Shown: in pieces, positions 13,998 through 52,600 of the stretch | How the letters are laid out: every line of letters starts with the position of its first letter | Position numbering within the stretch: position 1 is the stretch's first letter | Source: Vermamoeba vermiformis | Taxonomy: Eukaryota | Assembly: GCA_045837725.1 (NCBI GenBank) | Contig: JBEWZL010000265.1 | Span: 1-64,000, forward strand | Reading direction: 5' to 3' | Length of the DNA stretch: 64,000 nucleotides | Notes under the pieces: generated by a model | Database searches by the model: none | Told to the model about the DNA's origin: nothing | What the model saw: the letters and a program-made list of their open reading frames with translations, nothing else | Made by a program: the position numbers and the translations under genes

Positions 13998-15472
13998 ATG
14001 CTCAAACTGTGGATTTTGGTTGCCGTAGCGATCCAAACCGTGATCGGCACCGCTGTGGTAGAGATCTCGCATAATGCGACTGATATTGATAGAGAATGCA
14101 GTCCTGGATTTTTTAGATGCGGTGGATTTGGTGTGCAAGGTGTTTGTTGTCAGAACACGCAGCTGTGTTGTCCGGGAGCTGAATTCGCAAGTTGTTGCGC
14201 GGGAGATCAGCAATGCATGGGCCTTAATACGCCATATCAATTATGTTGCTTGCGAGGAAGCAGATTATGCGGTAATTTATTTTTAAATATTATTTTATTT
14301 ATTTAGATCTTTTTCGATTGTTTTGTAACCAGCAAATCAAAGCTGTTCGTAACATGATCATATTAAATATTGTATTACTACCGTGAATAGTTAATTACAT
14401 TATTATTCCGGCGAACAAAAAGTCGGTTTGCGCGGGCCGTGATCAACTTTTCCAATCCAGGCAAATAAATCCACTGGGTATCTAACCTCTTGTTTATAGG
14501 TGGCACATGCTGTCTCGAAAATCAAATTTGCGACCTGTCCTCGGAAGTGTGCTTGGACCACGATCCCGGGCTCCAATTCAACAAAAACCTCGCGCACAAG
14601 TTTGTAGTCTATTCCTTCATCTCTTATTGTCTGCCTGGGCTGAATTTGACATCGTGGGACTGTTTTTGGTGCAATGAAGTGCCCAAAGTCGACATAATCG
14701 CGACAGCAGCCGATGCAGATTCGGATACATACGCCTTCGTTGGTCTGAACAGTGCTGAGAAGCTCATCGTTGTATCGTTTAGAGGCACGTGCGACTATGA
14801 AAACATTATGACCGACACAAACTTCATCAAAACGCGTCCATACCCGAACAATCCTTCTCTTGAAGTACATCTCGGATTTTACAACGCGTACTCTTCGATC
14901 TCATCCACAATACTAAAAGGCGTTACGGAGGTATGCCATAATATACTAATACCTATATTAGCATAAGCACATGCTAACAAAGAGTTCTATAGAGTTTAAA
15001 TTATTGCCCGAAGTGTCGCATTGCGATCGTCGGCCACAGCCTCGGCGGTGCTTTAGCAACACTGGCTGCCTTTGACTTGTCTGAAATCGTCGATCAAAAG
15101 CAACTCTATGTGTTCACGTATGGATCACCTCGCGTTGGCAATCAATTCTTTGCTCAAGTGTATGGAGTACGCGTGGCTTCAACTTGGAGGTTTGTTCACG
15201 CAGCAGACCCTATTCCTCATTTGCCAGGAACTGACGTTAGTAAGTGCACACGAATCGCTCATAGTAGAGGCGATACTAACTGATTAATCGCAGATTTCTG
15301 GCACGTGTCCACCGAGATGTGGATTCGAAACGACACTTACATTGAACAGTGCGAAAGTGTCGGAGAGGATCCGAACTGTGCTGACAGCTTGTATATTTGG
15401 GACTATGACTACGGCTTGTCAGATCACAGGCACTACTTGGGCGAGTACACGAAGGATGCGTGCTCGTGTTGA
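13998..15472 (+). CDS. Secreted class 3 lipase with Cys-rich N-terminal region
   Basis: Signal peptide; VSFRGT, VHLGF, GHSLGGALA nucleophile motif, TYGSPRVGN, DPIPHLP, DHRHYLG. Confidence 0.92.
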
Positions 15473-15564: not shown

Positions 15565-18500
15565 TTATGTGAACAAACGAACGGTCGAATCTGATCCTGA
15601 GCTGAAGATCCAAGGCTGAGTAGGATGGAACATAATGTTCAAAACACCCAAATCATCAACGATCTGATGGCCCTTTAAGATCTTCAAGGGCACAATCATC
15701 GGGTTCTGCAACAAATCGTTGTAGACCATGCCGTGGAAGACGTGAATGTTGCCGTCGTCAGAGCACGAGGCGAACAAGGGGAATTGATGGTGGTAGGCAA
15801 CGGATCTGACTGCCAACTGGTGATATCTCAACACCTTGTAGGGCTTGACACCAAAGTCGAGGTCAAACCAAACAACGCGCTTGTCGTATGATCCAATAAT
15901 AACGTTATCACCAGCAGGGTGGATGTCCATTGACGAGATCCACTGCACGTTCGAAACCAACTTCTTGAACAACTGTTGCTTAGCCAAGTTGTAGACACGA
16001 ATGTGCTTTTGAGTGGCAACGAAGAAGAAAGGCTTGGAAGGGTGGAACTTGACCGTCTCGACGCGACCCTTGTTCTTCTTGAAGGGGCTTTGAGTCTGTC
16101 GTTTGCTAATGCTGTGAATCAACACGGCACTGTTGTTCGCGTCCGGGCTAACAGTGGCCAAGTAGTCACCTTTGTGGTGCCACGTGAGCTTCTTGAGTGC
16201 GTTCTTGGACTTGTATCGGATGCGAAGTCTGTAGCCCTTGTCGTCCCAATCGTCAACGTTAGGCTTCCTCCATTCAACCAATGATTGAACTAAACGATTA
16301 TTAGCACGAGCCATTTCACGCAAAACGGTAATTATGAACTTACTAGCTTCAGTGTTGCTGCTTTCGTCGGACAAGAACAACTTGGTAGTGTTAGCGGTTT
16401 GAGTCTCGTTGCCGAAGCCAGGTTCCACGACGAAAAGCTCGTCTTCGCTGTTATTTAAAGTGTTACTATTTGGCACGTATCAAAAGGCTGCGCAAAAACA
16501 TAAAAAGAATTTCAATACAAGGTTGTTTTATCAGAGAAAGTTAGAATCATAATTTATCATTCTAAGAAAGGCAGTATACTTTGATCATCATTAAAAACAA
16601 CCAGTGTATCGATTTGGATAGAAGTTAATCAATAGCAGTCAAGGAACGCATCCGATCGAGTTTTGGATGTGCTCCTTCTTGACGAAAAAAAATATTGTGG
16701 GATAGCACCCTCGACTGTCACCATTCGTTAAATATCGATAATATAGTAAAATTGAGCGTCAAGGATGCCTCAGTGTTCAGATGTGCTTGGAAAGTTAAAA
16801 AAGAACGCTACTTACGTTGCGACGGCAAAGCAGTGTAAATTAACATTAGGATTCCATTCAACCACGAGAACAACGTCGGGGAAAGTCCATTGTCGCATGC
16901 AACGGCCAGTTGAGACCTCCCAAAGACGAACTGTTTTGTCGTCGGATCCTGTTCACCAATGGACATTAGTACGCATTCAAAAATGGAGCCACTAGAATGT
17001 GCTCGATCGATTAAATATAAAATTGACGTATTTCTACTTACCAGTGATCAACCACTGACCAGACGGATCGACCGAAATAGATCGAACACGATCAGTGTGA
17101 CCCAAGTATTGAACAGATTCTTGTGTAGGGAAGGGTTTCAACTCTTCAGGACGAGGCAACTTAGGCACAAGAGATTGAGGATCGATTTCGAGCTTCTTTC
17201 GCTTGCTTCGGGTCGCCAAGTAAAGATCCAACAAACGATTGAAACGCTCGACCTGCAAGCGTGAGTAAGCAGGAACGTGACGTAATCGGTCGTATCTATA
17301 ATAGTTATATCAAAATTAGTATATACCTAGGATGTGCTGGGGTGTGCTATCAATACTCACTTTTGTGGCACGAAGTCTTGGTGTCGCTCTTCGGGATCGC
17401 TGTTTTTCCATTGGTCGAGTTCATTATCGTCGAATAAGTATTCAGATGGAGGGTTATATGACTCAGCATGACCTATAATGCAAAAATAAGTAAAAGCACT
17501 GACGCACACTCGCCGCAGATCCGTGGATCATGCGTGATCCGTAAAAACTGTATTTCGCAGTAAATAATACCTGGAAGTTTTTGTTTAGGAGCCGGCAATA
17601 TTTCTCGTCGCTTTTGGTCGTTAATATTGTCGTCCCAAATAAGGAAGAGTTGTGGCTCTTTTTTCTCTTCTTTCTTGTCCTTGTCTACCTTGATAATACC
17701 CTTCTTAATAGCCCAAGACAAGTATCGAATCTACATAACATGTTAATAAGATTGCACGCGATGGATTCTATCGAGGTAAGGCATTGCGTTGAAATCTGGA
17801 CTTACTCTCTTGGCTTCCCATTTGGAGGGAATAAAGTTATCTTTTCGTGCAGGCTTGTTAGATACGGGGTGAATATGATCGTCGTGGTCGGTCAATCTGA
17901 TAAACCAGTTCTCAGGCTCGTAGCGATCCGGAGCTACACCTCGTCGGATTCGCTTGATCATTTCCATTTCACGGTCTGAAATAAATACACGTCGACCCAA
18001 ACGCTCGTCGTAAAGTGTTCTCCTGCAATATTGTAACCGTTAGTAATCGTTAAAAAAAGTCATAGTTTGATTAAATGAGTGCACGATCCAGGATGCACAC
18101 GAAATTGTTTGTGGCTACTTAGAGCTGTGTAAAAATATTTAACATACCAAGCAGTAGGATCTTCGTTGGTTTCAACGAATTGATCGATTTTGTCAATGCC
18201 AACGCGTGGCTTAGCGATCTTCTTGCCTTCTAGATCGTATCCGACGTGGTCGTATTCGTCGTACCACTCTAATGGAACGTTTCCGATAGTGCTCAACGTG
18301 CGCTACAAGAAAAATGGTGTTAGAATCCGAACGAAGGCTAGTCAGATCTGATGCGAAATCTTCGATCGCGATCTTGGATGTCAAAAATGGAGGAAATAAA
18401 TTGGCTGCACGCCCCAAAAATATGCAATATTTTTCTTGCGTCACTTACTTCATTTTCTGAATCCTCACTGTCATAATTCATTGAGCTGTGACTGGATGCG

Positions 18501-19001: not shown

Positions 19002-19565
19002 CTTTGAATCCTGTTTCAAGGTTTGGATTAGCCAACTGCGATCCAAAACGAGATGCGAGGCCACTCGCGATGACGATAACTTACTATAATAATATATTAC
19101 GGACACCTGTTGTTATGAGTCGCAACAAGCACAAAAAATGCGGTTCTGGTGTCCGGCAAGTATTTTTTCAATTGACCGCCATTTTTTTCTGAAGCTCACT
19201 TTGCACCACCACAAATATAAGCATCAATTAATGGTACCGAGCGTTCATTAATAATATTATAGTGCCATAAAATTAAACAGGTAAGCAACACTCGTTTTCT
19301 GTGCGATCGGCCGAAATAAATTTATGTGTATCGAAATACTTCCTAGCCACAATTTATATCAATATAATGTACTATAATCCCAATAATTTATCGTAGAGCT
19401 TGTTTATCGGCCCAATCGAAATTTGTTAGCAAAGATCGAGGTTTGCATTTTCCATTAATTAATGTATGGATTAATTTAATTAAAACGCAAAATATATTAC
19501 TAATATCGAATATGCGTATTTTATAGTAGTCGCGTCGGTGCATCTACTAACAATTTTCTCTAGAG

Positions 19566-22500
19566 ATGAAGATACACGTGACTTCGTCTTCTCTGCAGAA
19601 GCTAGAGACTATTCTATTAGAAAAGTACAGCTACAAACGATTAGAAGAGAAAGTACATAAAATATTTCCCAAGAAGAAGGTAACGCGATCCACCGTAGAT
19701 CATGGCTGGTTTTACTAAGCTCTTCAGGTTGCTGCGATCCGAGACCTTGAAGGAAATAATGTACGTGACCTCCCTGAAGATGTAGTAAAGAAAAAGGAAG
19801 AGTGGTACGCCGTGGTCTTGTTGGAGAACGAGTCGTTAGGTACGGTTAACCATGCACATTTTTACGCGCTGAAAGTTGATTGTGCGGAGCGAATGAAACA
19901 CAATAACTTATCGTTCATTGCTAGATGCGGCTCCCGTTGTCAAGTTTAGCGAAGACTTCGTTCCTGATCCGAGTAAGTCGTGCTGTACGTCTTGTCATTC
20001 TCGTTGCTTACCTCGATCTCAGAAATGCTCGTCGACGGAGGCGTCACCGAGTACGACTTCGTGACGGCCCTGGCGGAGATTATCGATAACTCTATTGAAG
20101 CTATGCTCGAGACAGACGAGACACCAGCCTTGTCAATCAAGTACGAGGGCGACGCGCAAAAAAATTACATTATCATTCGCGACAACGGCAAAGGCATGCT
20201 TCGTGATGATGTTATTAAGTGGGGCACGCTAGGTTTGAATAGTAAACAGTAAGTTCGTTATCTTCATCGTGTCACGGCGCTAACTTTGATCAAAGGCGCG
20301 GTGTGAGCATGATCGGTTGTCCTTACCCTCTGTATTTGTGCGGGCAATTCTCTCGATTTGGTGTTGGCTCTAAGAACGCTGCTTTCTTCTTGGGCGATAA
20401 TGTTACAGTTGAGTCGAAGAGCAAGAACTCAAGAAGCATTCACAGCGTGTCTTTTCAGCGCGTAAGTAGCACAATTAGTTATTACGACGGTACTAAGTCC
20501 CAATAGGCCCTTCTAGAAACTAGACGAAAAAGTGCCAAAGAAGATTGGTGGAAGGACGACGTCACAACTACTCCAGCACCTGTCGATAAGCAGGATCTAC
20601 ATTATACCGAAACAACTATTACAACGTTGAAGCCACAATTCTTAAGTATTTTACCAGACACAATGGATCGTAAGTTGGTTGGACTTATTTTATTCAATTC
20701 CAATGTTGACTGTATCATTTCATTTCAGAATATCGTGCACGTCTCGAAGAAATCTATCACTATTATGTTTTTGGTCCAAATGGTGCTCACCCAGCGTCAC
20801 TTGAGAAACTTCATTTCACACGAGTTGATATTCGATTGTCAGAGCGCAATTCAAAGTTCATTCAAGAGCTCGCTAACTGTATGAAGTCAAACCCTGTAAA
20901 AGAGAACTATTTCTTCCTCACTCCAGCAAATGGTATGTTATCATATCTTATCTGTACGATCAACTGACTCTGGATTCAAGGAATGGAGGTGCTTGACAAC
21001 TTAAGCGACGAAGAGAAAGAAACTTTTATGCAACACCACATTGCTATTTTGCCAGGAGAGAAAAAACAAAAAATGACCAAGACATCATTTGCACCACTTA
21101 TGAAGGCACAGAAGACTTTCAAAACAATTGCTGGCTCCACCATCACAGTGGTTGTTGGTGAAGCAGTAGAGCTTGGAAAGCGATTTCACACTACAACAAA
21201 CAAAATCAATTTGTTTGCAGCCTTTGGAGAGCCTGCAAAATATGTTTCGCCAGCTACTCCTAAGAAAAATGACAAAAAGATTGAAGAAGAACTTTGGTAT
21301 ATTCCAATCTCTGAGCCACTCTATTGCCCTGCTTATCAACCTGTTGAAATGCACTTAATGCAAGTTAACATAACACGCTCTCCTAGTCCCTGGGATCGCT
21401 TTGGAATGTACCAGCTGAAAAGTCAAGCGTAAGTCTCCGTTCTTTGGTAAAATTTTACTAATAGCCACTAGTGAGCTTCGCTTTGAAGTGCCTATTGAAG
21501 CTGATGTCCCAGTGAACTACACTCAAGCTGATGTTAGAGAAAATGACAAAGTTCGTTGCACGTTCCGCTTTCACATCATGTACTTCCCACTACAAGAGAG
21601 CGAAGGAAGTGATGTACGCCTTGAAACAAATCCTGATTACTATGATGATCAAGGTGCCCTGCTCAATCCTCCTACAACATACTGGTTTTGGAATGGTCGG
21701 TTGATTCCAAGAGCAGCACTTGATTTTTGGGCCATATTCAAACAAAAGAAAGACCAGAAAAACATTCCAAAGGAGTGCTTCTCAGTTAGAACGCGCATCT
21801 TTGCATTCATTGACTCTTCTATTGGTGTTGCTAAGAACAAGGTCTATTTGGACTTGGAGTCACCTCTCCTTAAAGAGCTTATTGCCAGCAATAATAAGAG
21901 GAGGAATGTCGAAGACGTGCAGAAGTTTATGGAGTACTGTCACATGCGTTATGACCTGGAAGCTGAATGGAGTGGGCCTGGAGTTCTCAATGAAAACAAA
22001 ATCTACTACTCAAAAGTGATGATGCAAGGCAAGGCAATTGAGGTAATTGTTATCCATAAACATAAATTTGTTCTAATTGGTTTCTAGAAAGGAACAAAGG
22101 TCAAAGTAATGAATCCCAAAAAATTTGGCTGGGTTGAAGCATTGTTTGAAGATGCAGAAAGCAACAGAAGACCAAAGATGGCAAGAATAATTCCATGGGC
22201 TGAAAACCGTGATGAAAACTCAAAACTTGCTCGTACTGAATATTTGGAAGTTCTGCTGTCAAAAATCAGCATTCTCACTCAAGAACAGTGGGAGGTCGAG
22301 GTTGAAAAGGGCCGTGAACAATTTGGAAAGGAGCTTGTGTTTTCTGATATTGTCAAAGGCAGTCAAGCAGAGCATCCTGTTTGCTTAGTCTGTCTATGCC
22401 ATGTGAAAAAACGTGAGCTCAAGTGCAAATCTTGTAAGGCTCACTTTCACCGCTCTTGCTACACAAAACCACAAAAAGAAACAGAAGCTTACAAAGAGAG

Positions 22501-25500
22501 CTTGGATGATATTGAGAATGCTAAGTAAGGATATTAATCAATAACAAAAGTTTGTGTTAACTTTTTACAGGTTGTGGTGCTGTGATGACTGCATTGAGAA
22601 GGAAGACATACAAGAATATTTCAAAACAGCCCGTTGTGGACACACTTTCAAGGAGATGGCAGTTACTTTGCTTGACGATAAATCCAAGCCAAAAGCAAGT
22701 CAGAATGAGGTTGTTTGGCAAATTTTGGATCCTGCTGGCCATGAACACCGTTCATACCAGGATGTCAAGCAGTACAAAAATACGCAAGAGTATCGTGGCA
22801 AATATTATATCCGAACAATAATGTTCCCAACTCCAGGTACAAATTCCCTCTGGCGCCCACATGATTAGTAACCTTCAATCTTTAGGCATTTGGACAATGA
22901 AGGCCTACCTAAAGAACTGCCCATCCATTCAAGGAATTGCTTCTATCAAGGTGGTTTCAGGATACCCTGTTAAGTTCCATGAATCCAAAATCACAAACAG
23001 TGCATGCAGAATTGGAGAAGAGATTCATAATATAAGCCTTGTTTGTGTTGACAAAGCTGTAAGTTCTTGACATGAGTTTGGTTCAGCTCTAACAAATTTC
23101 CAGGATCATCCTGTCAGATTCCTACCAAATCACCCTCCTACCAATTACACTCTCAAAGTGTTGAATTCCCCTCATATCAGTGTGGAGCCTGGCCACTCAT
23201 TGACAGTGAATGAAGAAGGAGAGCTGATTCTTAGTGGTGTTATTTTAGAGGGCAGCATTGAGGACTCTCAATCAGTCATTCTCTCATGTTCATTAGCAGA
23301 GGAAAATGAGGCCATGACTTGCTTAATTCGTCTCACATTGCAAGCTGGCCCACCTTCAACAATGGAAACAGACTTTAAGCAAGGATTAGTAATTGATAAT
23401 TACTCATTTTTGCCCAAGTTCACTGTCCATGTCTATGATGAATATGGCAATCACATCAACAATGAAGAAGAATATCATGTGCAAATTGGACTTCCAAACC
23501 CTGTGGAGTTTTTGGTGCAAGATGGCATAGCTGAAATTGACTTAGAGCAGAAGGATGTGCGCATAGAATGTTCTTTCAAGGGTAAATATGATTATGTTAG
23601 CTCAAACAATTTCTCACACATGTGTAGACATGGATGCCAGTGAGGAAATGAAGATTGAAGTCAAACTTTTAAAGACAAAGAAACCACGTGGACTCCTTGA
23701 AGTTGAAGAGGTTGAGCCAATTGAATGCCTGTTCAGTGTGAGGCCTTCAAAGAAACCTCATGCCCTCAAGCTTTTCACTCAAGATGGAGAGCAATTGGTT
23801 GCAAAAGGTGCTGTCATAGCTGGCTCTGGACTGAAGCTTGTTGGACAAGCAGAGGAGCTTGTGCAACTTTTTGGCCAGTTTGTCAACGAAAGCCAAATGA
23901 TCATTGCTTTAGATGAAGTTCCAGCAGCTACTTTCAACTTCTCCAAGCACTTTGCCTTCACACATATGACCTTTGATCAGCTGCAAAAGCAATGCAAAAC
24001 TCCTAGTGAATGGAAGCAAAAGAACATGTTTTTGTTGCCTACTCTTGCTTTGCCATCAAGTACCTTTGATAAAACCAAAGGTGAAATTCAAGTCATGTGT
24101 GGCAAGAAGTTGACTGTGCAACTTGAATTCAAAGTTCTTGCAGGCAAGTCCAAGATGCTTCACTTGTAAATTACTGACACATTTCTCAGCTCCTCCCAGT
24201 CAATTTGAAGTCAAACTTCCTCCTCACCTACAGTGCAGCAAACAATTTACAGTGGCATTAATTTTGAAGGATAAGTTTGCAAACATAGTTGCTCCCAATG
24301 ACCTCTCTGGGTATGTAAAGTAATGGAGATGGGGAATTTCTGGCTAACATATATTAGTGAATTCAAAGATGAGCTGAAAAGCAGCTTGAGCTTTGTTTTT
24401 GGAGAGGGATTCCAATATGAACTTACTCCCACCATTGACTTTAACCCTGACCATGTTGTACTTGCAAACATGCAAATTGATGTTGTTGGCAGACACCAAG
24501 GTTTGATTAAACTCAATCTTGGTGAATTGCAAATGCAACAAGCTGTGATGTTAGATGTTGGGCATGGTATGACTACACGTCATTTTTGATTTCCTTACTA
24601 ATCATATTTGTAGGTGCACCTGCAAGTTTACAAATCAATGATGATAGACCCCTTAGTGGAAGGCCAGATGGGGTTTGTCAGATTAAAGCAACTCTAGTTG
24701 ATGACCAAGGCAATGTTTGTGATAAGTTCCAAGACATTGACCTTGAAATTTCTTCAGTTTGCTTTGTCACCAAAAAATTTAAAACCAAACTGATCAAAGG
24801 AGTGGCGCACATTGATGTGCCAATTAAGAAGATTAAATATGGCAACTACCAAGTAATTTTTGAGGCACAGATTGGCTCTAGTGAAAAGATCTCCACCCAA
24901 GTTGATCTTGAACTAGAGAAGTCTAATGCTGTCCAAAAGCTTGAGTTAGTGAGACCTATTGAAGTTATTCCTGCTGGATCAACTTGGAGATTCCATGTAA
25001 GCTTGAAGCTATACACATCACTATCTTCTAACGTATTCTAGATTGGAGTTGTAACTGAAGATGAGCAAGCACTTCAAAGAGACACTTACAGCTTTAAAGT
25101 TGTAATTTCAAATCCAGCTTTGGTGGGATCTGATATTGAGAACATTCTGAACATCACTCGAGAAGAAGATAACAAATTTGTTATTGATGTAAGTTAATCC
25201 CTACCTGCACCTTGAGCTGATTGTACTTCAGATGGACAAACTTGAACGTGCTGGCCAATACACTATGCATGTTATTTGGGATGAGCAAAGACTTGAACTG
25301 TAAGAATTGACCAAATCATTGCCCATCTAACATTGAACGACAGACAAACCAACATTCCTCCAAAGATGACAATTCCAATTGTTGTTAAACCCTTGGCAGC
25401 AACAGCCCTCAGACTTAGTTGCCATTGTGCCACTCCTTCGTTGCACCAAGACAACATATTGTATGCTTTTGTGCAATCATTCTAGGCTAATTTTTTGTTA

Positions 25501-27546
25501 TGCAGCTTCCGACCAGTCAGCAACAAGTCTGATTTCAGAGAACGCTCATTGTGCAAAAACCTGGAATTGGCACCTGTAGATATTTATGGAAACTTGAGTG
25601 AGGAGGTGCTTGACAATATTGTTGGTACGAACTGATTGCAAATTTCATTTTCAACCAGATTCGTTAATATTTTGTTTACAGCATTACTGCAGCCAATCTC
25701 TGAATTGAGCTCTGATGCAGTTAAACCAGAAGTGATGTATCAAACAATAGTGCCGAAGAGGGGCTCTTATTTTGTGCACAATTTGAGCATTAAAGCCGAT
25801 TCTGGAAGCGGAACTGTAAGAATAACCTTCAAACAATTTTATTTTACAACATTCTAACCTGACTAAATTTAGGCCGAATATCAAATTCATTTTGAGGCCA
25901 GAACAGCGGCAGGCAAAGTAATTCGCAGCATTTTCCGTCAATTTAAATTTTCAGATGGTAAGAAATATTTTCATTTTTATTCAGCTGCCATTGCTAATCA
26001 ATTAAATTAGATGCTGGCAAAACGAAGAATGAACGAGCATTATCAGAAATTTTGCAAAAAGTGCAGCGTATTTCAAATGAGCGAGCTGAAATTGAACGAC
26101 GCATTAGTGCCAGCCGCGAAGAGTTAACTCTGTTAGAAGGAAGTATTAGTGGCACACTGAATATTTTTGGTGTTTCGTTGAACGAATACACTCCCGATTG
26201 GGTCGATCAAACGCGACAGAGATTGCACCTTGAAAAGTACGTAAATTTTTAATTTCTAATTACAATTATTAATATTAATTTTATTTTATTTCTAGACGAG
26301 ATCTTGCACGCGAATTACGCATTGCAGAGCCATCGTTCCCTTCAAACGAAGATTCTTACGTTAACAAAGTACGAGCCCTCGTCATTGAACATCAGCCTAA
26401 GAACCCACACGAAAAGCCATTAATTTTTGGCCTTGGTTTGGACATTATTTGTTTGCCGAAAGACGAGCGAATTGCACGAGGAGTATTGGCTGCAATCTCG
26501 CCGGGAGATTTGAAGCTGATTATATTGCGATCAAAAGAAGCCGAGCCAATTATTGAAAAGTCGTTCAATTGGTACAGATCCATTACCGTAGATCAAGCGG
26601 AGACTTATCATTATGGCAACCCTAATCCTAATGATAATCGAATTCCTGGTACGTTCTACAACTTTATTAAATTATCCTGGTTATTTCTTAATTTAATTAT
26701 TTCTTAGATAATCAAATCTTGCCGAAGTGCTGCAGAAACGGTACCGTTAATCCAAAGAATTACGGATTTATTGGATTTTTGGTCAATTTAATCGAGGTAA
26801 TTTTTTAATGTAAATTAAAATTAGACGACATTGAAATTAATTTTTACTTTTATTAGCTACGTCCTCAACATATTCATTTGCGAACTTCCGTATTTTGGAG
26901 TGTTTTCAAGACGAAAATGATCTTCGAATCGTACGCTCAAGCGAGAGAATTCCGCTCGCAAGTGTTACAAAACGTATGTAATGCATTATTATTGTTGTAT
27001 ATACTCTGACATTGTTTATAGCGAGACTCGTGCCCGTACATTCAATGCTTGGATGGCATTCATATTGAAGCTTCTGGCGTGAAATCAACGTCGAATCAAA
27101 ATCGTGCTTGGAGACTCGGAGATTTGCCGATTGAATTTAGCAGCCATCCGTTGGCTTTGGCACTGGGACGAAAATTCAAAGGTAATTACGAATTATAATG
27201 GCCTTATTGATCGAAAACTAATTCCAACGGTTTTGTTATTTGTAGCGTTGAAAGAATTGCCAGCTCAAATGGAACGCTTTACGGTTATTAAAGACAATTA
27301 TCACGCGAGTGAAGCTACGCTGCAAGAATTTGATGCCACTAACGGTCCTAAAATCAACGAACTCCAAAAGGTAATAGTACTATTAAAAACGATTTCATTA
27401 ACGGCTCGTCGCTGACTATTTATTTGTAGCAAAAAGAAGAAATTGAGAGTCGTATGAATCAAACCTCGAGAAAAAGAACGCGTGATAGCACCGGAAATAA
27501 CGAACGCGATGATGAACACGATAGACCGCGAAAGAAAGTTCGTTAA
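19566..27546 (+). CDS. SMCHD1/GMI1-like protein: GHKL ATPase, transducer, PHD finger, long beta-rich linker, coiled coil and SMC hinge; start may lie further upstream (~19231)
   Basis: ALAEIIDNS, DNGKGM, SRFGVGSKNAAFFLG, IYHYYVFGPNG, FWNGRLIP; hinge motifs GFIGFLVNLIE, LRTSVFWSVF, CLDG; basic C-terminal NLS-like tail; many short introns. Confidence 0.85.
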
Positions 27547-27712: not shown

Positions 27713-30700
27713 TTACAATTCATCGCCTTCGTAATATCCATCAACGATGACCTTCCGCTCAATTTTCTTGCCAGATTTGGGTGTGTTATTACTCGCATTG
27801 CTATTATAAGTAATGTTGCCGTGCGGTGATACCAGCGAGGCTTCTTGAACGGATCCAAAATTCAAATTCAGTGCCGGGACTGTAAAGCTGATGCTGTCGC
27901 TATTTTTAGCTTCATTCGCTGGGCTATGTTGAGCTGAAGATAGCGAGAGATATTTAATCTTGGCCATCAGTTCGTTAACGTCGGTGGATGTGGGCTTCGG
28001 CAGACCAGCGTGCTGATGATACTGCGCTAGTAGCGATGGCACGATTTCATTGACCATATTAGTGTCTTTAAGGCCTTCATTGCCCAGTGCATCGCGGACA
28101 AAGTCTAACACTGGATCTGGTTTCTTGGCTGCGTTGGATGGTGGATGCGCGAATCCGACGTTTGCACTCGATTGCTTCATCTTATTTACAGGGGAATCAG
28201 TTTCGAAACCTTGATACGAATGTTCAGGCATAGTAACACCTAGGCAAAAAATTGTTATTATCAACAAAAAAAAAGAAAAAATGTTCGCCTTGGATCGAAT
28301 CCGTTACAAAAAGAATTTCAGCAACTGATGTAATAGAAATATGCGCTCGTTGTTGGAACTTAAAAAGCAAAAAAAGAAAAGAGCACAACACCTCCGATTC
28401 CCAGGTAGTCTCCTACCCCAGTACTAAGAAGGCCTGAACAAGCTTAACTTCGCTGATCGGACGGGAAGCGGTGCATTCTTGTTAGTGTGGTCGTGCCCGA
28501 GACCAAAAGCAATTTGGTACGCAGGTCACTCCTTACTAAGCCAAGAATAGAAGCCACCAAGATCCCGATCGACCAGTACAAAATAAAATTTTAAATTTGT
28601 GTAAGGCCTTACCTCCAACTCTAGGCGAGTCAAAATTGAGCATAGATGATGCACTTGAGCCTACAGATCTGCGCAGCTCTTGTGCCACTGGCGGACTGTT
28701 GTGGATCTGCCTCGGTGAGGTCATAACAACCGGCAGCCATTGCTTAGTTGTACGAATGGGCTCTTTGAACTCAGAGAACGCTTTGATGCACTCGCTGATC
28801 GTAGAGAATTTTTTGACCTTGGTGTTCTTTTCTTCAGGAATAAAATACAAGTTCGCTGAAGATCGCCAAATCTGACAAAATTATTAGCGACTTAATTTCT
28901 GCTAATATTGTATGACATACCTTAGCATGTTCTAATTGTCCTTGCGATGTATTGAAGCTAGCAGTTAAAATGTTGCCGTCTGAAGTTGGATCGCGCAACA
29001 AATACGAGCCCGGCGGTTTGTTACGCAGAATATTCCAAACTTCTTTTACGCTAATCTTACCGAAGTAAGCGTGACTTACTCCAGTAGTACTATCGAATAG
29101 CGACTCGATCTAAGCATGGAATAATTAAAATCGAAATTTTTCCTTTTATGGAAATCGAACTTTAAGCACTTACCACCGAGAGCAGCATATTCCAAGAACC
29201 AAATTGATTTAAGAACCGTAGAAACTCCGTCAAGGTAAGTTCACCATTGACGGTATAACTCTCTAATATGAGCGAGATGTTGTACCAACACGCCAAAATG
29301 TTAGGGGTCTGCGGCGCTGCTTGTTTTTGGTATTCGATGAAATTCTTCAGTTTAATCTTACGGCCGCTAGTAAATATCTAAAATAATTATATTAGTACGG
29401 CAATCTTGCGAAAATGATCGAAAAAAAACATTGGAGCGGATGTAAGATGCGTACCTTTGCTTCGTCTTGCCTCAATTCATCCGAGCTTAATAACTTCATT
29501 AACATCTCTTTGATTTGTTCCTTGCCATCAACACTCTTCAACACATTGTTCAACCACGCTTCATTAACTTCCTTCAAGGTCATCTTGACGAGCATGGACT
29601 TTGGCAGCACCATCGAACTGTTTCGTCGCACATTCGCAACTTCGTTGACATTGCCGACCTCTAACCAGTATTTTCGCGTACGCTATAATTAGAGAAAGTG
29701 TTAGTCCGTGTAAAGGTTCGAAAGATCTCGGATCGCACGTGCTTACCTTTATCGGATCCACGGTCTCGTTAAAGAATCCATAGCTTTCAAATTCATTATG
29801 AACTTCGCCTTCGCCTTTTCCCCACGATTTTTCGGCTTCGGGAATTGAAACAAGGACTAAAAATAATACAGCACGTCAATAACTCAAATTAATTTCAATT
29901 AATTTCGGCTGACGTCATTATATTCAAATTTTAACTCCGATGCAATATTAAATAATTAGCTAGCTAGCTATAGCTAGAAATTGATATAAAAGTATTCCTA
30001 CAGGATCCGAATAATTTTCAGAGAAAGAATCTTCACTAGAATTCCATTAGGTGATACTTACTAGCATTGACCGTGTTGCCTTGACTATTCTTATGCTCAC
30101 TCCACTTAAATCCGTTGAGCTTCATATCGCCGCTGAACTTCTCCGTGTCGCTGCTGAACTTGTAAACTGCATCCACAAAATGACTGAACTTAATATGCCC
30201 GCTGCTGCTCATAGGTGGTGGTACGGCATTGCTATATCCGCTAGTGTTGCTATATCCTGAGCTTCTTAAGCTGTCTGATGTCATCGTAAGCGATACTGTA
30301 CTAACGTTAATTGGATTTGCAAAGGAATCAGGAGGACTATTACGACTATTATGGTATCCGCTTGCAGCTGGAGCTGTATTAATGTTCGATGTGCGCTTAG
30401 GATCGGTTATATATCGCGTAGGGCTCGCTGGATAATCTTGCGGCTCTTCCGCATCCGAGTTGTACATGTAACTCGCTGAATCTCCTTCAGAAGCTAGACT
30501 TGAGACCGATGCATTGAGCGGCTGTTGCGCTGAATCGTTGGCATATTTCATTGTATTGATTGGAGGCGAGCTCTGCATATTATTTGAATTTTCATTGTTG
30601 TTGACAGGGACAAAAGTGGATTCGGCAAAATAAGCTGGTCTAACATTAGTGTTGAGCGGAAATAATTGCGGGAGTGGCCCGGTACTTGGTTGAATAACTG

Positions 30701-49659: not shown

Positions 49660-52600
49660 ATGACGAGCACACGTCTATTAAGCTACATCATAGGCATACT
49701 ATGCATTGCCGCTACGGTGATTTGTACCGGTGAAGCTGGTAAGTTTCTGAAACTGATCCGGATTTAATACTAGTAGAATATCTCAACAATCACTTCTTTG
49801 ATCAAAACATTAATTAATACCTTGTAATCTTTTAGGACAAGATTCGCTATTAAATGTTTTCGTTGTTCCTCATTCGCACGATGATGTTGGCTGGGTCAAA
49901 ACTATAGAAGTATTTATAATTAAATTATGCCCCATAAATTATAATTTTAATCATGTTATTATTGAGGATTATTACGAAAGTGAAGTGCGCTTCATTTTAT
50001 CCACAACTGTTGACACTTTAATGCAAGCTCCCAATCGCAGGTTTATCCAAGTAGAACAGTACGTTGATACTTTATGAAATCTTGTTTAATTGCGTACAAA
50101 GGGGCTTCTTCACGCTGTGGTGGAACGACGAAAGAACGACTGACCAGCAGCGCCAGAATCTCAAGTTCCTCGTAAAAAACAAACAATGGGAATTTGTTAT
50201 TGGTACGATTGAAAGGCAGGTGTATCAGCAAACTCTTTTGACACGTGCATTTAAGGTGGCTGGGCGATGCAAGACGAGGCGTGCTCGACTTACAGTGCTG
50301 ATATTGATCAGGTGAGCTCGTCCATCGACGTTTTAATAACACGGCACTAAACTGACACCCGAATAGATGACTGAAGGGCACCAGTTCTTGCTAGACACCT
50401 TTGGCGTGACACCAAGATTAGGCTGGCAAATCGATCCATTCGGAGCTTCAAGCGTAACACCAACATTGTTCGCAATGATGGGCTTTGATGGTCACGTAAT
50501 CCAAAGAATTAACTGGCAAACAAAGGTATGGTAATTAATCGTCTGAACGACTGTGTTTCATTTTTTGCTGTGCGACGGACAACACAAGGCGCTGTAGTTA
50601 AGTGGTAAAATTCTTGCTTAGGGTGCAAGAGGCCCCGGTTCGATTCCGGGCAGCGCCCCACTAATTTTTTGCCTTTTGTCCTCCGATGCAAGTTCTTTGA
50701 TGGCTTTGCCTAGAGTGCCCTCTGTAGTGTGATTTTTACGTTCAATATTAATTTACCCGTACCCAGAAAGCGATGATGCAAAACAAGACTATGGAATTCG
50801 TTTGGCAAGGTTCGCCGAGTTTAAAGCAAAAGACTCAGATTTGGACGCACTTGTTGGACTACAACTACTGCGCGCCAATGTTACAGTAAGTATTTCTTTG
50901 GTCAATGACAATTTGGACTAATCTGATCCGCTCCGTAGAGGCTTCAATTGGGAAGGCAACCCTTTGAGCAATCCGTGGATAACCAACAATAACGTACACA
51001 ACCGTAGCATGGAGTTTGCTCGCCTTATTAAGGTATTGGTACATTCTACTTGGTCAGATCTGACCGTCTTAAAATCGCAGGAAAAAACCAACTGGTACAA
51101 GTCAAAGAACATTCTGATTCCTTGGGGCTGCGACTTTGCTTTCCAGGACTCGCTCGTTCAATTCATGAATATGGACAAGATCATCGACTACATTCATTCA
51201 AACCCGAACATCTTTGGCATGAACATCAAGTACGCCTTGTTGAGCGAGTTCTTTGACGCTGTAGCAAATGACACTACGACCACTTGGCCCGTGCTTGGTG
51301 CCGTTGATTTCTTCCCTTACGACGACAACGATAACAGTTGGTGGACTGTAAGTTCGTTCATGAATAACTGACTGGTATCTAATGACGTAAAAGGGCTACT
51401 ACACTTCTCGCAATCAATTGAAGGGTCTTGTGCGACACAGTGAACATCTTTTGCGCACATCAGACACGTTGTTCACAGTGACCCAAGCCAAGGCACCCAT
51501 GGACAGTGCCGCTGCCTACAAACAAATTGATGTGTTGCGACAAGCTGAAGCTGCAGTGCAACATCACGATGGTGTCTCGGGCACGGAGAAGGACTTTGTC
51601 GTCGACGACTATTCAGCTCGTTTGTTCAACGGTGGAAATCAAGCTATGAACGTGAGTCACCAGATCCGCACGGCTTCGTTATTCATCACTAACACGTACT
51701 AAAGGTTACGTTGACTGCTCTTGGTTTATTAGTTAACTCCACGAACCCCGCTAAGTTCACCAACAACACTGACTTGCTCTTGAACCTCAGAGTTGGCAGG
51801 GTAAGTCAGTTTATCCTCCTAATATTCCGCAACTAACCTTCACAGACTGTCTCTTTTGTCGCCTACAACAATCTTGCTTGGAGTCGCACGGCTGTCATTC
51901 GATTGCCGTTGAACAGAGTTGACATCACTGTTCTTGACAGCAACAACAACGTTGTTAATTTCCAAGTATGTAGTTGAAGGAGTCGTATTAGTCCATACTA
52001 ATGTACTGCAGATCAACAACGCCTCGTCTGACACACCTAATGGCAAGTACGCATTATTCGTGCAAGTTCAACTGCCTGCTCTCGGCTACAACACGTACTT
52101 TATCAAGGTGACTGGCACTGTGCCCAACAACAACATTGCCGTCATCACAACCCCAACCAACGGTGTCATCATTGAGAATCCGTTCTTGCGTGTCAGCTTC
52201 GACTCCAACACGAACCTGATCACCCAAATTATCAACAAGAAGTCCTCGATTAACATTGAGGCTCAACAACAGGTACGCAGCCAATAGACTTACGACAAAA
52301 TCTAATTAACATTGCAGACTCTTGCCTACACGAGCTATTCAAGCGGTGGTCAGAACTCGGGCGCGTACATCTTCCGTCCAACAGGCCCTGCTTCGCCCAT
52401 CAACGGCAACGTTGCGCCTCGCCTCACAGTTCAAACTGGACCTTTACTCAGTGAAGTGGTGCAAGTGTTCAGCGATGTCATTAATCAGGGCCCTTCATAC
52501 TTTACTCTGATCACAAGGTCCGCAAATTAATTCTTAAAGTAACCGTCTAACAATCGTGTCTTCAGATTATACAACGTTGATGAAATCTCCGTCGGCAACT

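Follow-up and report, generated by a model that had tools for sequence, protein, structure and literature searches.

A PHD-derived finger in a functionally important loop of an amoebal SMCHD1

The window analysed here is a stretch of 64,000 nucleotides from Vermamoeba vermiformis (assembly GCA_045837725.1, contig JBEWZL010000265.1, forward strand), and it carries an SMCHD1-like gene at 19566-27546 on the plus strand. This gene is an SMCHD1 orthologue, and its protein contains a small zinc finger that we assign to the PHD family from its ligand pattern and descent. The insert is a real, lineage-limited variation on SMCHD1, and the loop that holds the PHD-derived finger is functionally important. 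In our preferred reading, held tentatively and with a little less than even confidence, an ancestral reader of the unmethylated H3K4 tail would have been remodelled in the window lineage into a basic contact with DNA or chromatin.

A first-pass annotation of the window had noticed a C4-H-C3 series of residues split by an intron. They are present as quoted, the ligands being divided between exons 10 and 11 in the same reading frame. The first part of the finger (22382-22524, plus strand) provides C783, C786, C797, C800, H805 and C808, whose codons lie at 22382-22459 in exon 10 (22088-22524), and a long conserved acidic loop. After a GT-AG intron of 46 nucleotides (22525-22570, plus strand), the last part (22571-22592, plus strand) follows in exon 11 with W832-x-C834-x2-C837, encoded at 22575-22592. 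The spacing over residues 783-837 is thus C-x2-C-x10-C-x2-C-x4-H-x2-C-x23-W-x-C-x2-C, and the pattern arose in none of 20000 shuffles of the 2163-residue model. The PHD finger is defined as Cys4-His-Cys3 (PMC9640981).

The position of the finger differs in part from what had been proposed, just after the ATPase/transducer and a BAH-like segment. It does lie downstream of both, but inside the first Ig-like domain (IGL-1), one strand past the BAH, and not between domains. We modelled the S5-to-IGL-1 stretch of a close relative, P0002, with AlphaFold; among the Ig-like domains the model includes only IGL-1. The Ig sandwich match spans residues 314-498 of the model (Z up to 11.6, root-mean-square deviation (rmsd) 2.0-2.4, about 100 residues). 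With the insert trimmed, the best match (Z 11.6, rmsd 2.4, 101 residues) skips the low-confidence insert at 327-398. Because the Ig match runs across 314-498 while omitting the insert, and the alignment agrees, the model places the finger inside IGL-1 after its first strand. In the window, this strand is encoded upstream of the finger at 22322-22360 (plus strand, residues 763-775). The remainder of IGL-1 occupies approximately 22620-22970 (plus strand, residues about 850-945), crosses an intron at 22837-22885 and shares 82 of 96 residues with P0002.

The finger is better conserved than the protein that holds it. It is identical to that of P0002 at 47 of 55 residues; the BAH reaches 57 of 105 and the whole protein 77%. 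The last part is identical at 7/7 residues and the 22-residue loop at 18/22. Judged from this comparison, the zinc scaffold of the window-lineage finger is under strong constraint, and because of this constraint the finger is probably functional. Of the domains compared in the two proteins, the BAH is the least alike, and the adjoining IGL-1 with its finger is 85% identical.

Homologues were collected by three word-based searches and one full HMMER search, all seeded with the window protein. The counted set holds 26 distinct SMCHD1-like proteins spanning the insertion site, the window's included, with no plant GMI1 among them. Two near-copies of P0002, seven cluster fragments and two cluster mates were left out beforehand, and four more fragments were too short. 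Five of the 26 have the finger: the window protein, its close relatives P0001 and P0002, P0003 from Flabellula baltica (Amoebozoa, Tubulinea) and P0007. In Flabellula it occupies the same aligned site as in the window. It is absent from two Dictyostelium proteins (Evosea), two of Naegleria lovaniensis and three of diplonemids (both Discoba), and three protist-like proteins. All 11 animal proteins examined also lack it (two are placed with animals by the tree, and 7 of the 11 are aligned at the site), in line with the earlier remark that no PHD finger is known in animal SMCHD1.

The carriers, three distant lineages, form one clade on a tree of GHKL, S5 and BAH built without the finger (SH-like approximate likelihood ratio test (SH-aLRT) 100; 96-99 with any one of three left out). 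The architecture, which might have turned out to be already common, is uncommon in this set and confined to one clade. By this grouping, the window organism would be an amoebozoan. The distribution is most simply read as one insertion in a common ancestor. Against it, long branches meet in the tree, only quick trees were made, and the sample is biased towards the relatives of the query. The fraction 5/26 probably overstates the frequency of the finger, since the searches were seeded with the window protein. A metagenome scan gave one locus (L002), a false match to a bacterial dehydrogenase-like gene, and two ESM Atlas searches gave no usable match.

The descent of the finger is clearest in Flabellula. 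Its insert scores above the cut-off in Pfam, with 36.1 bits for PHD (cut-off 24) and 36.5 for PHD_2. Its best solved matches are BRD1/BRPF2 PHD1, ORC1b, BAZ2A, Jade-1/3 and AF10 (2l43, 2ku3, 8ge0 and 5dag among them). In a PHD finger, the cage Trp stands two positions before the ligand His. None of the finger carriers compared has Trp there; the site holds His in the window and P0002, Pro in P0003 and Cys in P0007. Readers of H3K4me3 form an aromatic cage with an invariant Trp, while readers of unmethylated K4 do without the cage and carry clustered acidic residues ahead of the first Cys; Arg2 is often bound by acidic side chains (PMC3241642). The acidic-wall rules of PMC5415848 contribute nothing decisive. 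The Flabellula finger has acidic residues before Cys1 and, like BRPF2, an Asp after Cys3, a position we took from the Flabellula structure alignments. By these residues it resembles the readers of unmethylated H3K4.

The window finger is different at the same places. It has one Glu before Cys1 and Lys after Cys3, and neither an acidic cluster nor an Asp after Cys3. From six residues before Cys1 to Cys6 its net charge is +5, compared with +4 in P0002 and P0007 and -2 in Flabellula; the value is the highest among those of the 11 complete PHDs of its own genome (-6 to +4) and the four orthologues. The proposal of a working, built-in histone reader is not supported in that form for the window copy, which lost the H3K4-reader residues retained by its Flabellula orthologue and has a basic first half. 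Judged from the residues, the ancestor may plausibly have read histones; for the window copy this is doubtful, and its finger does something, but probably not canonical H3 reading. The charge also has a side that weighs against a basic contact. Taken whole, the window finger carries just +2, since its long loop and C-terminal end are acidic, and the DNA-binding surface therefore stays putative.

We envisage the following history, of which the single origin and the steps of binding and coupling are what we infer. A PHD finger would have been inserted once, into the loop after the first IGL-1 strand, in the ancestor of a clade that includes a Tubulinea amoeba. The original finger may have been a BRPF/Jade-type reader of the unmethylated H3K4 tail, a look retained in Flabellula. 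It would have given the SMCHD1 dimer a built-in nucleosome link beside the BAH-IGL-1 DNA site, where mammals partly use LRIF1-HP1. In the window lineage, the zinc scaffold is kept while the H3 pocket would have been remodelled to a basic surface. The finger would now most likely bind DNA or another acidic chromatin surface, and may extend the BAH-IGL-1 site, through which DNA binding is coupled to ATP turnover.

[quoted passage not shown] The invariant Asp closing the transducer corresponds in the alignment to human D571, and the motif lysine 97 residues past that Asp in 5 of 11 animal proteins (95-99 in the others) matches K668. Window K743 aligns with the lysine equivalent to K668, which is kept. 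The finger thus belongs to the DNA-sensing module, about 35 residues downstream of K668 in human numbering. There are precedents for a finger that is basic or degenerate: the PHD of plant VEL proteins binds polyanions and not H3 (PMC9640981) and the CW of MORC4 binds DNA (PMC7596504).

It is possible, though on the unlikely side, that the window finger still reads the H3 tail unmethylated at K4, aided by nearby acids or by the BAH as in ORC1b, and so targets the ATPase to nucleosomes. It would descend from a finger that in Flabellula looks like a textbook K4me0-type reader. All eight ligands, the Trp and the Leu two before Cys3 are retained, the Glu is four residues before Cys1, and the acidic loop would be near the Ala1 pocket. 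H3 of the own genome has the canonical N-terminal tail. Mammalian SMCHD1 reaches H3K9me3 indirectly via LRIF1-HP1, and its BAH bound none of the tested H3 marks (PMC4628070); in the own genome there are three chromo-shadow matches and none to LRIF1, although the LRIF1 control matched nowhere either, so that this absence is uninformative. Against continued H3 reading stand the missing acidic cluster, the Lys in place of Asp, the missing cage Trp and the basic first half. Moreover, P0007 lost the same reader features, independently or by descent. When the relative's BAH-IGL1(PHD) was predicted in complex with the own H3 tail and two Zn, the score was 0.00 with the alignment not used, and we count it neither way.

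Several H3 types of the own genome (L063, L065, L066, L071 and L074) have a common N-terminal tail but differ from one another near K27. The type with His at position 6 is present in several copies at contig ends.

Less probable, and indeed rather unlikely, is that the finger is a protein-contact or allosteric module. Its degenerate pocket or its long conserved loop would then contact the ATPase/transducer, the other protomer or a cofactor and regulate the ATPase cycle, like the CW of MORC2. The 18/22 identity of the loop exceeds the need of a spacer. That CW is degenerate and, instead of a histone, engages arginines in the ATPase module of MORC2 itself (PMC5811534), and the long loop of the Pygo PHD binds BCL9 (PMC3241642). 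However, neither a partner nor a contact has been identified, the loop is short in Flabellula and P0007, and the structure models give no confident packing of the insert.

The finger-bearing protein can be set beside several known systems. By analogy, MORC is the closest, the window finger corresponding to the CW of MORC ATPases. The CW binds one zinc. In MORC1-4, a GHKL-S5 chromatin ATPase is likewise joined by a small zinc finger. In contrast, the CW follows the transducer, whereas the two-zinc C4-H-C3 pattern of the window is nested in an Ig domain after the BAH of a hinge-bearing protein. The CW reads H3K4me3 in MORC3/4 and is degenerate and regulatory in MORC1/2 (PMC5811534, PMC5651269); SMCHD1 is described without a CW domain (PMC5811534). 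A survey of the MORC-linked domains names Bromo, BAM, PHDX/ZfCW and TAM/MBD and describes the hinge-bearing lineage, with no mention of a PHD in that lineage in the portion of its text at hand (PMC2292703).

Vertebrate SMCHD1 shares with the window protein the order of GHKL, S5, BAH and Ig-like array, probably followed in both by coiled coil and hinge, as well as the K668-equivalent lysine. It differs in lacking the finger, which has about 55 residues, is flanked by linkers and is inserted in IGL-1 at about human 700-706 as deduced from the alignment, and the loop that holds human K591/K592 is shorter in the window protein. The PHD1 of BRPF/BRD1, Jade and AF10 belongs to Pfam PHD_2, which is also the top Pfam match of the window half finger, and includes the best solved matches of the Flabellula insert. 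In those proteins, PHD1 is followed by a zinc knuckle and a second PHD. The window finger is single and has no acidic residues for H3 K4 and R2.

The BAH-PHD cassette of plant ORC1 (5hh7), solved with unmodified H3, also has its PHD nested in another domain beside BAH surfaces. There the PHD is embedded in the BAH (PMC9992703) of a protein with an AAA+ motor, whereas that of the window is within the IGL-1 of a GHKL protein. The PHD superdomain of plant VEL/VIN3 combines a PHD signature with a positive surface, polyanion binding and no H3 binding (PMC9640981). Its host protein and flanking fold are different and the likeness is one of description; as an analogy, VEL may be a precedent for what the window finger has become.

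That the segment is instead a RING-like (ubiquitin E3) or C1-like zinc finger is highly improbable. Several scores nevertheless weigh against a PHD. Against profiles built locally on 11 PHDs and 20 RINGs from the own genome, the window finger scores 8.4 bits for PHD and slightly more, 10.8 bits, for RING, and in profile-profile comparison without Flabellula the two tie at about 8% each. A phmmer search with P0001 against solved structures finds weak matches to the RING of RNF38 (E-value 0.3-0.5) and no PHD. The spliced relative P0002 stays below the Pfam cut-offs, with 14.6 bits for PHD (cut-off 24) and 14.2 for PHD_2 (cut-off 28). AlphaFold leaves the insert unfolded without seeds, at a predicted local distance difference test score (pLDDT) under 50, and with six PHD seeds added brings only its first half to about 70. 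The structure searches list no finger match, larger domains having filled the lists. The window half finger matches PHD_2 (E-value 4e-4, 20.1 bits) and PHD (0.012, 16.1 bits), both below cut-off, and also weakly zf-RING_2 (0.037) and C1_1 (0.13). On its own, the window finger appears too diverged for profiles to decide.

We chose PHD because the ligand pattern and the Trp fit, because H803 is not conserved while C797 is kept, and because the orthologous Flabellula insert is a clear PHD. Among seven ligand patterns, only that of PHD fits the window, P0002 and P0003. The last pair of P0007 is C-x-C, so that its finger strictly matches none of the seven, and the RING-HC, RING-H2, RINGv and C1 patterns fail on all four fingers tested. 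The C1 pattern has a His placed 12-13 residues upstream of the first Cys, together with a lone Cys about 8 residues past the sixth ligand. The aromatic residue before the last Cys pair, W832, stands two before C834 and is Trp in all five carriers. A RING-H2 reading depends on H803, a position occupied by Pro in P0003 and by Cys in P0007. On P0002, zf-RING_2 is gone at E-values up to 1, and the PHD match, though subthreshold, covers positions 1-47 of 47. With Flabellula added, the four-member insert profile gives PHD 89% and RING 18%. A missed Pfam cut-off marks divergence and is no defining structural feature.

A gene-model artefact, or a finger spliced out of the mature mRNA, is barely conceivable: the junction is seen in one low-depth contig alone and the X9-X11 reads are too divergent for the region at a 92% cut-off, but the finger shares a long open exon with the BAH, is conserved above the protein average and is complete in three full-length relatives, P0002, P0023 and P0025 (2131 residues). 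That contig, from run X1, departs from the genome at 22526, and its next 12 letters are those of window 22573-22584, which is the junction predicted. P0023 and P0025 lie on contigs of 6597 and 6537 bases and are therefore intron-less. P0001 has an intron, read through, at the position of the window's finger intron. The doubt whether the finger might be spliced out is thus answered by the junction and by the intron-less relatives that keep it.

The X1 contigs skip 10 further modelled introns and the X9-X11 reads show an 11th; in all, 11 of the 29 modelled introns are seen as joints in read or contig data. That X1 is RNA-derived is a guess from the tool, favoured by the skipped introns. In another X1 contig, a loose end of 16 letters at 22086 fails to match the exon upstream, for which we have no explanation. 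The raw reads X9-X11 come from a diverged source (90-95% alike) and at the 92% cut-off cover almost only the hinge region.

The first-pass annotation had suggested that the architecture might be undescribed. A literature search found no description of a PHD-bearing SMCHD1, as judged from titles and abstract starts with poor coverage of subscription journals, and the word 'PHD' is absent from PMC7458401 and 10.1101/2025.07.08.663435. The architecture is not unique to the window genome, being present also in Flabellula, P0007 and the close relatives.

The finger bears on how SMCHD1, a protein of facioscapulohumeral muscular dystrophy type 2 (FSHD2), Bosma arhinia microphthalmia syndrome (BAMS) and X inactivation, finds chromatin and couples binding to its ATPase. 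The mammalian protein is not known to have a histone reader of its own (PMC4628070). The insertion points to a loop in the DNA-binding module where an entire domain is tolerated and which probably lies towards chromatin. Its presence hints that in some unicellular SMCHD1s the methylation of H3K4 guides the protein, and the canonical finger of Flabellula and the remodelled one of the window are a pair of test proteins.

A bolder version is doubtful: that an amoebozoan SMCHD1 branch gained a reader in BAH-IGL-1 through which the unmethylated H3K4 tail, or DNA in the remodelled copies, directly gates the GHKL cycle. If true, it would be a convergence with the CW switch of MORC3/4 and provide a single-polypeptide, adaptor-free SMCHD1 for testing chromatin targeting and ATPase coupling. 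It would also offer a natural series from reader to non-reader in one protein family. The weight of the finding as a whole is limited, as the gain of reader domains is common in chromatin proteins, the MORC CW already shows the idea, and the function is putative.

The gene that holds the finger has 30 exons and 29 introns and encodes 2163 residues. The window DNA is of a compact eukaryotic type with short introns, here of 43-85 nucleotides. The first automatic gene model was dropped because several introns were false or misplaced, and the corrected model was used throughout. It is colinear with the spliced full-length P0002 (76.9% identity, 2128 aligned residues), and the window gene is the only SMCHD1_S5 match in its own genome, hence single-copy. 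One intron of the 29, at 24144-24189 on the plus strand, is GC-AG; it was chosen without read support as the best-scoring candidate against P0002.

The domains run from an N-terminal domain, probably UBL, through GHKL, S5 transducer, BAH, IGL-1 with the PHD insert, an Ig-like array, a probable coiled coil and the hinge-like region to a basic C-terminal tail. By the model, this set of GHKL, SMCHD1-type S5, and BAH followed by Ig is that of the SMCHD1 family. The GHKL ATPase core (20023-20461, plus strand, exons 4-5) matches Pfam HATPase_c_3 with 39.1 bits in its first exon (cut-off 25), and its catalytic E-x3-N motif and G-boxes are intact (motifs at residues 107, 145 and 189). The S5 transducer and the start of the BAH (21472-22042, plus strand) match SMCHD1_S5 (PF22899) with 48.3 bits (cut-off 27), and the transducer of the P0002 model fits SMCHD1 6mw7 with Z 12.6 and rmsd 2.5 over 142 residues.

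The BAH (residues about 656-762) starts in exon 9 and its C-terminal part is at 22088-22321 (plus strand). Residues 207-314 of the P0002 model match DNMT1 BAH1 (Z 10.0) and ORC1 BAH (Z 9.6). The SMC-hinge-like region (26296-27181, plus strand) is defined by alignment to relatives only and is 87% identical to P0002. Pfam SMC_hinge has no match in the window exon scanned or in P0002, and the region aligns with P0014 and P0016, both above the SMC_hinge cut-off.

SMCHD1-like proteins (P0029, P0030, P0014, P0028, P0026, P0027 and P0004) occur in Dictyostelium, Naegleria and diplonemids, despite the wording 'conserved across vertebrates' for SMCHD1 in a 2026 preprint. These protist genes as such are ordinary and are consistent with an ancient eukaryotic lineage, as described in PMC2292703. 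P0017, a 336-residue fragment of the P0002 cluster, has the source name 'ribosomal protein L37AE/L43A' and is apparently mis-annotated.

Upstream and head-to-head with the SMCHD1-like gene, a BOP1/ERB1-type WD40 gene of ribosome biogenesis lies on the minus strand (BOP1NT at 17746-18039, WD40 at 15565-16476), the two sharing a short upstream region at about 19200-19566. Other neighbours are a class 3 lipase (14469-15280, plus), an SH2-domain protein (28837-29109, minus), a cytochrome P450 (33681-33929, plus) and a tRNA-Pro (50588-50659, plus); no functional link of these four to the finger is seen. A 5S rRNA gene (28380-28498, minus strand; Rfam RF00001, 104.7 bits) stands alone between protein-coding genes a short way past the end of the SMCHD1-like gene, and it is the only copy in the window.

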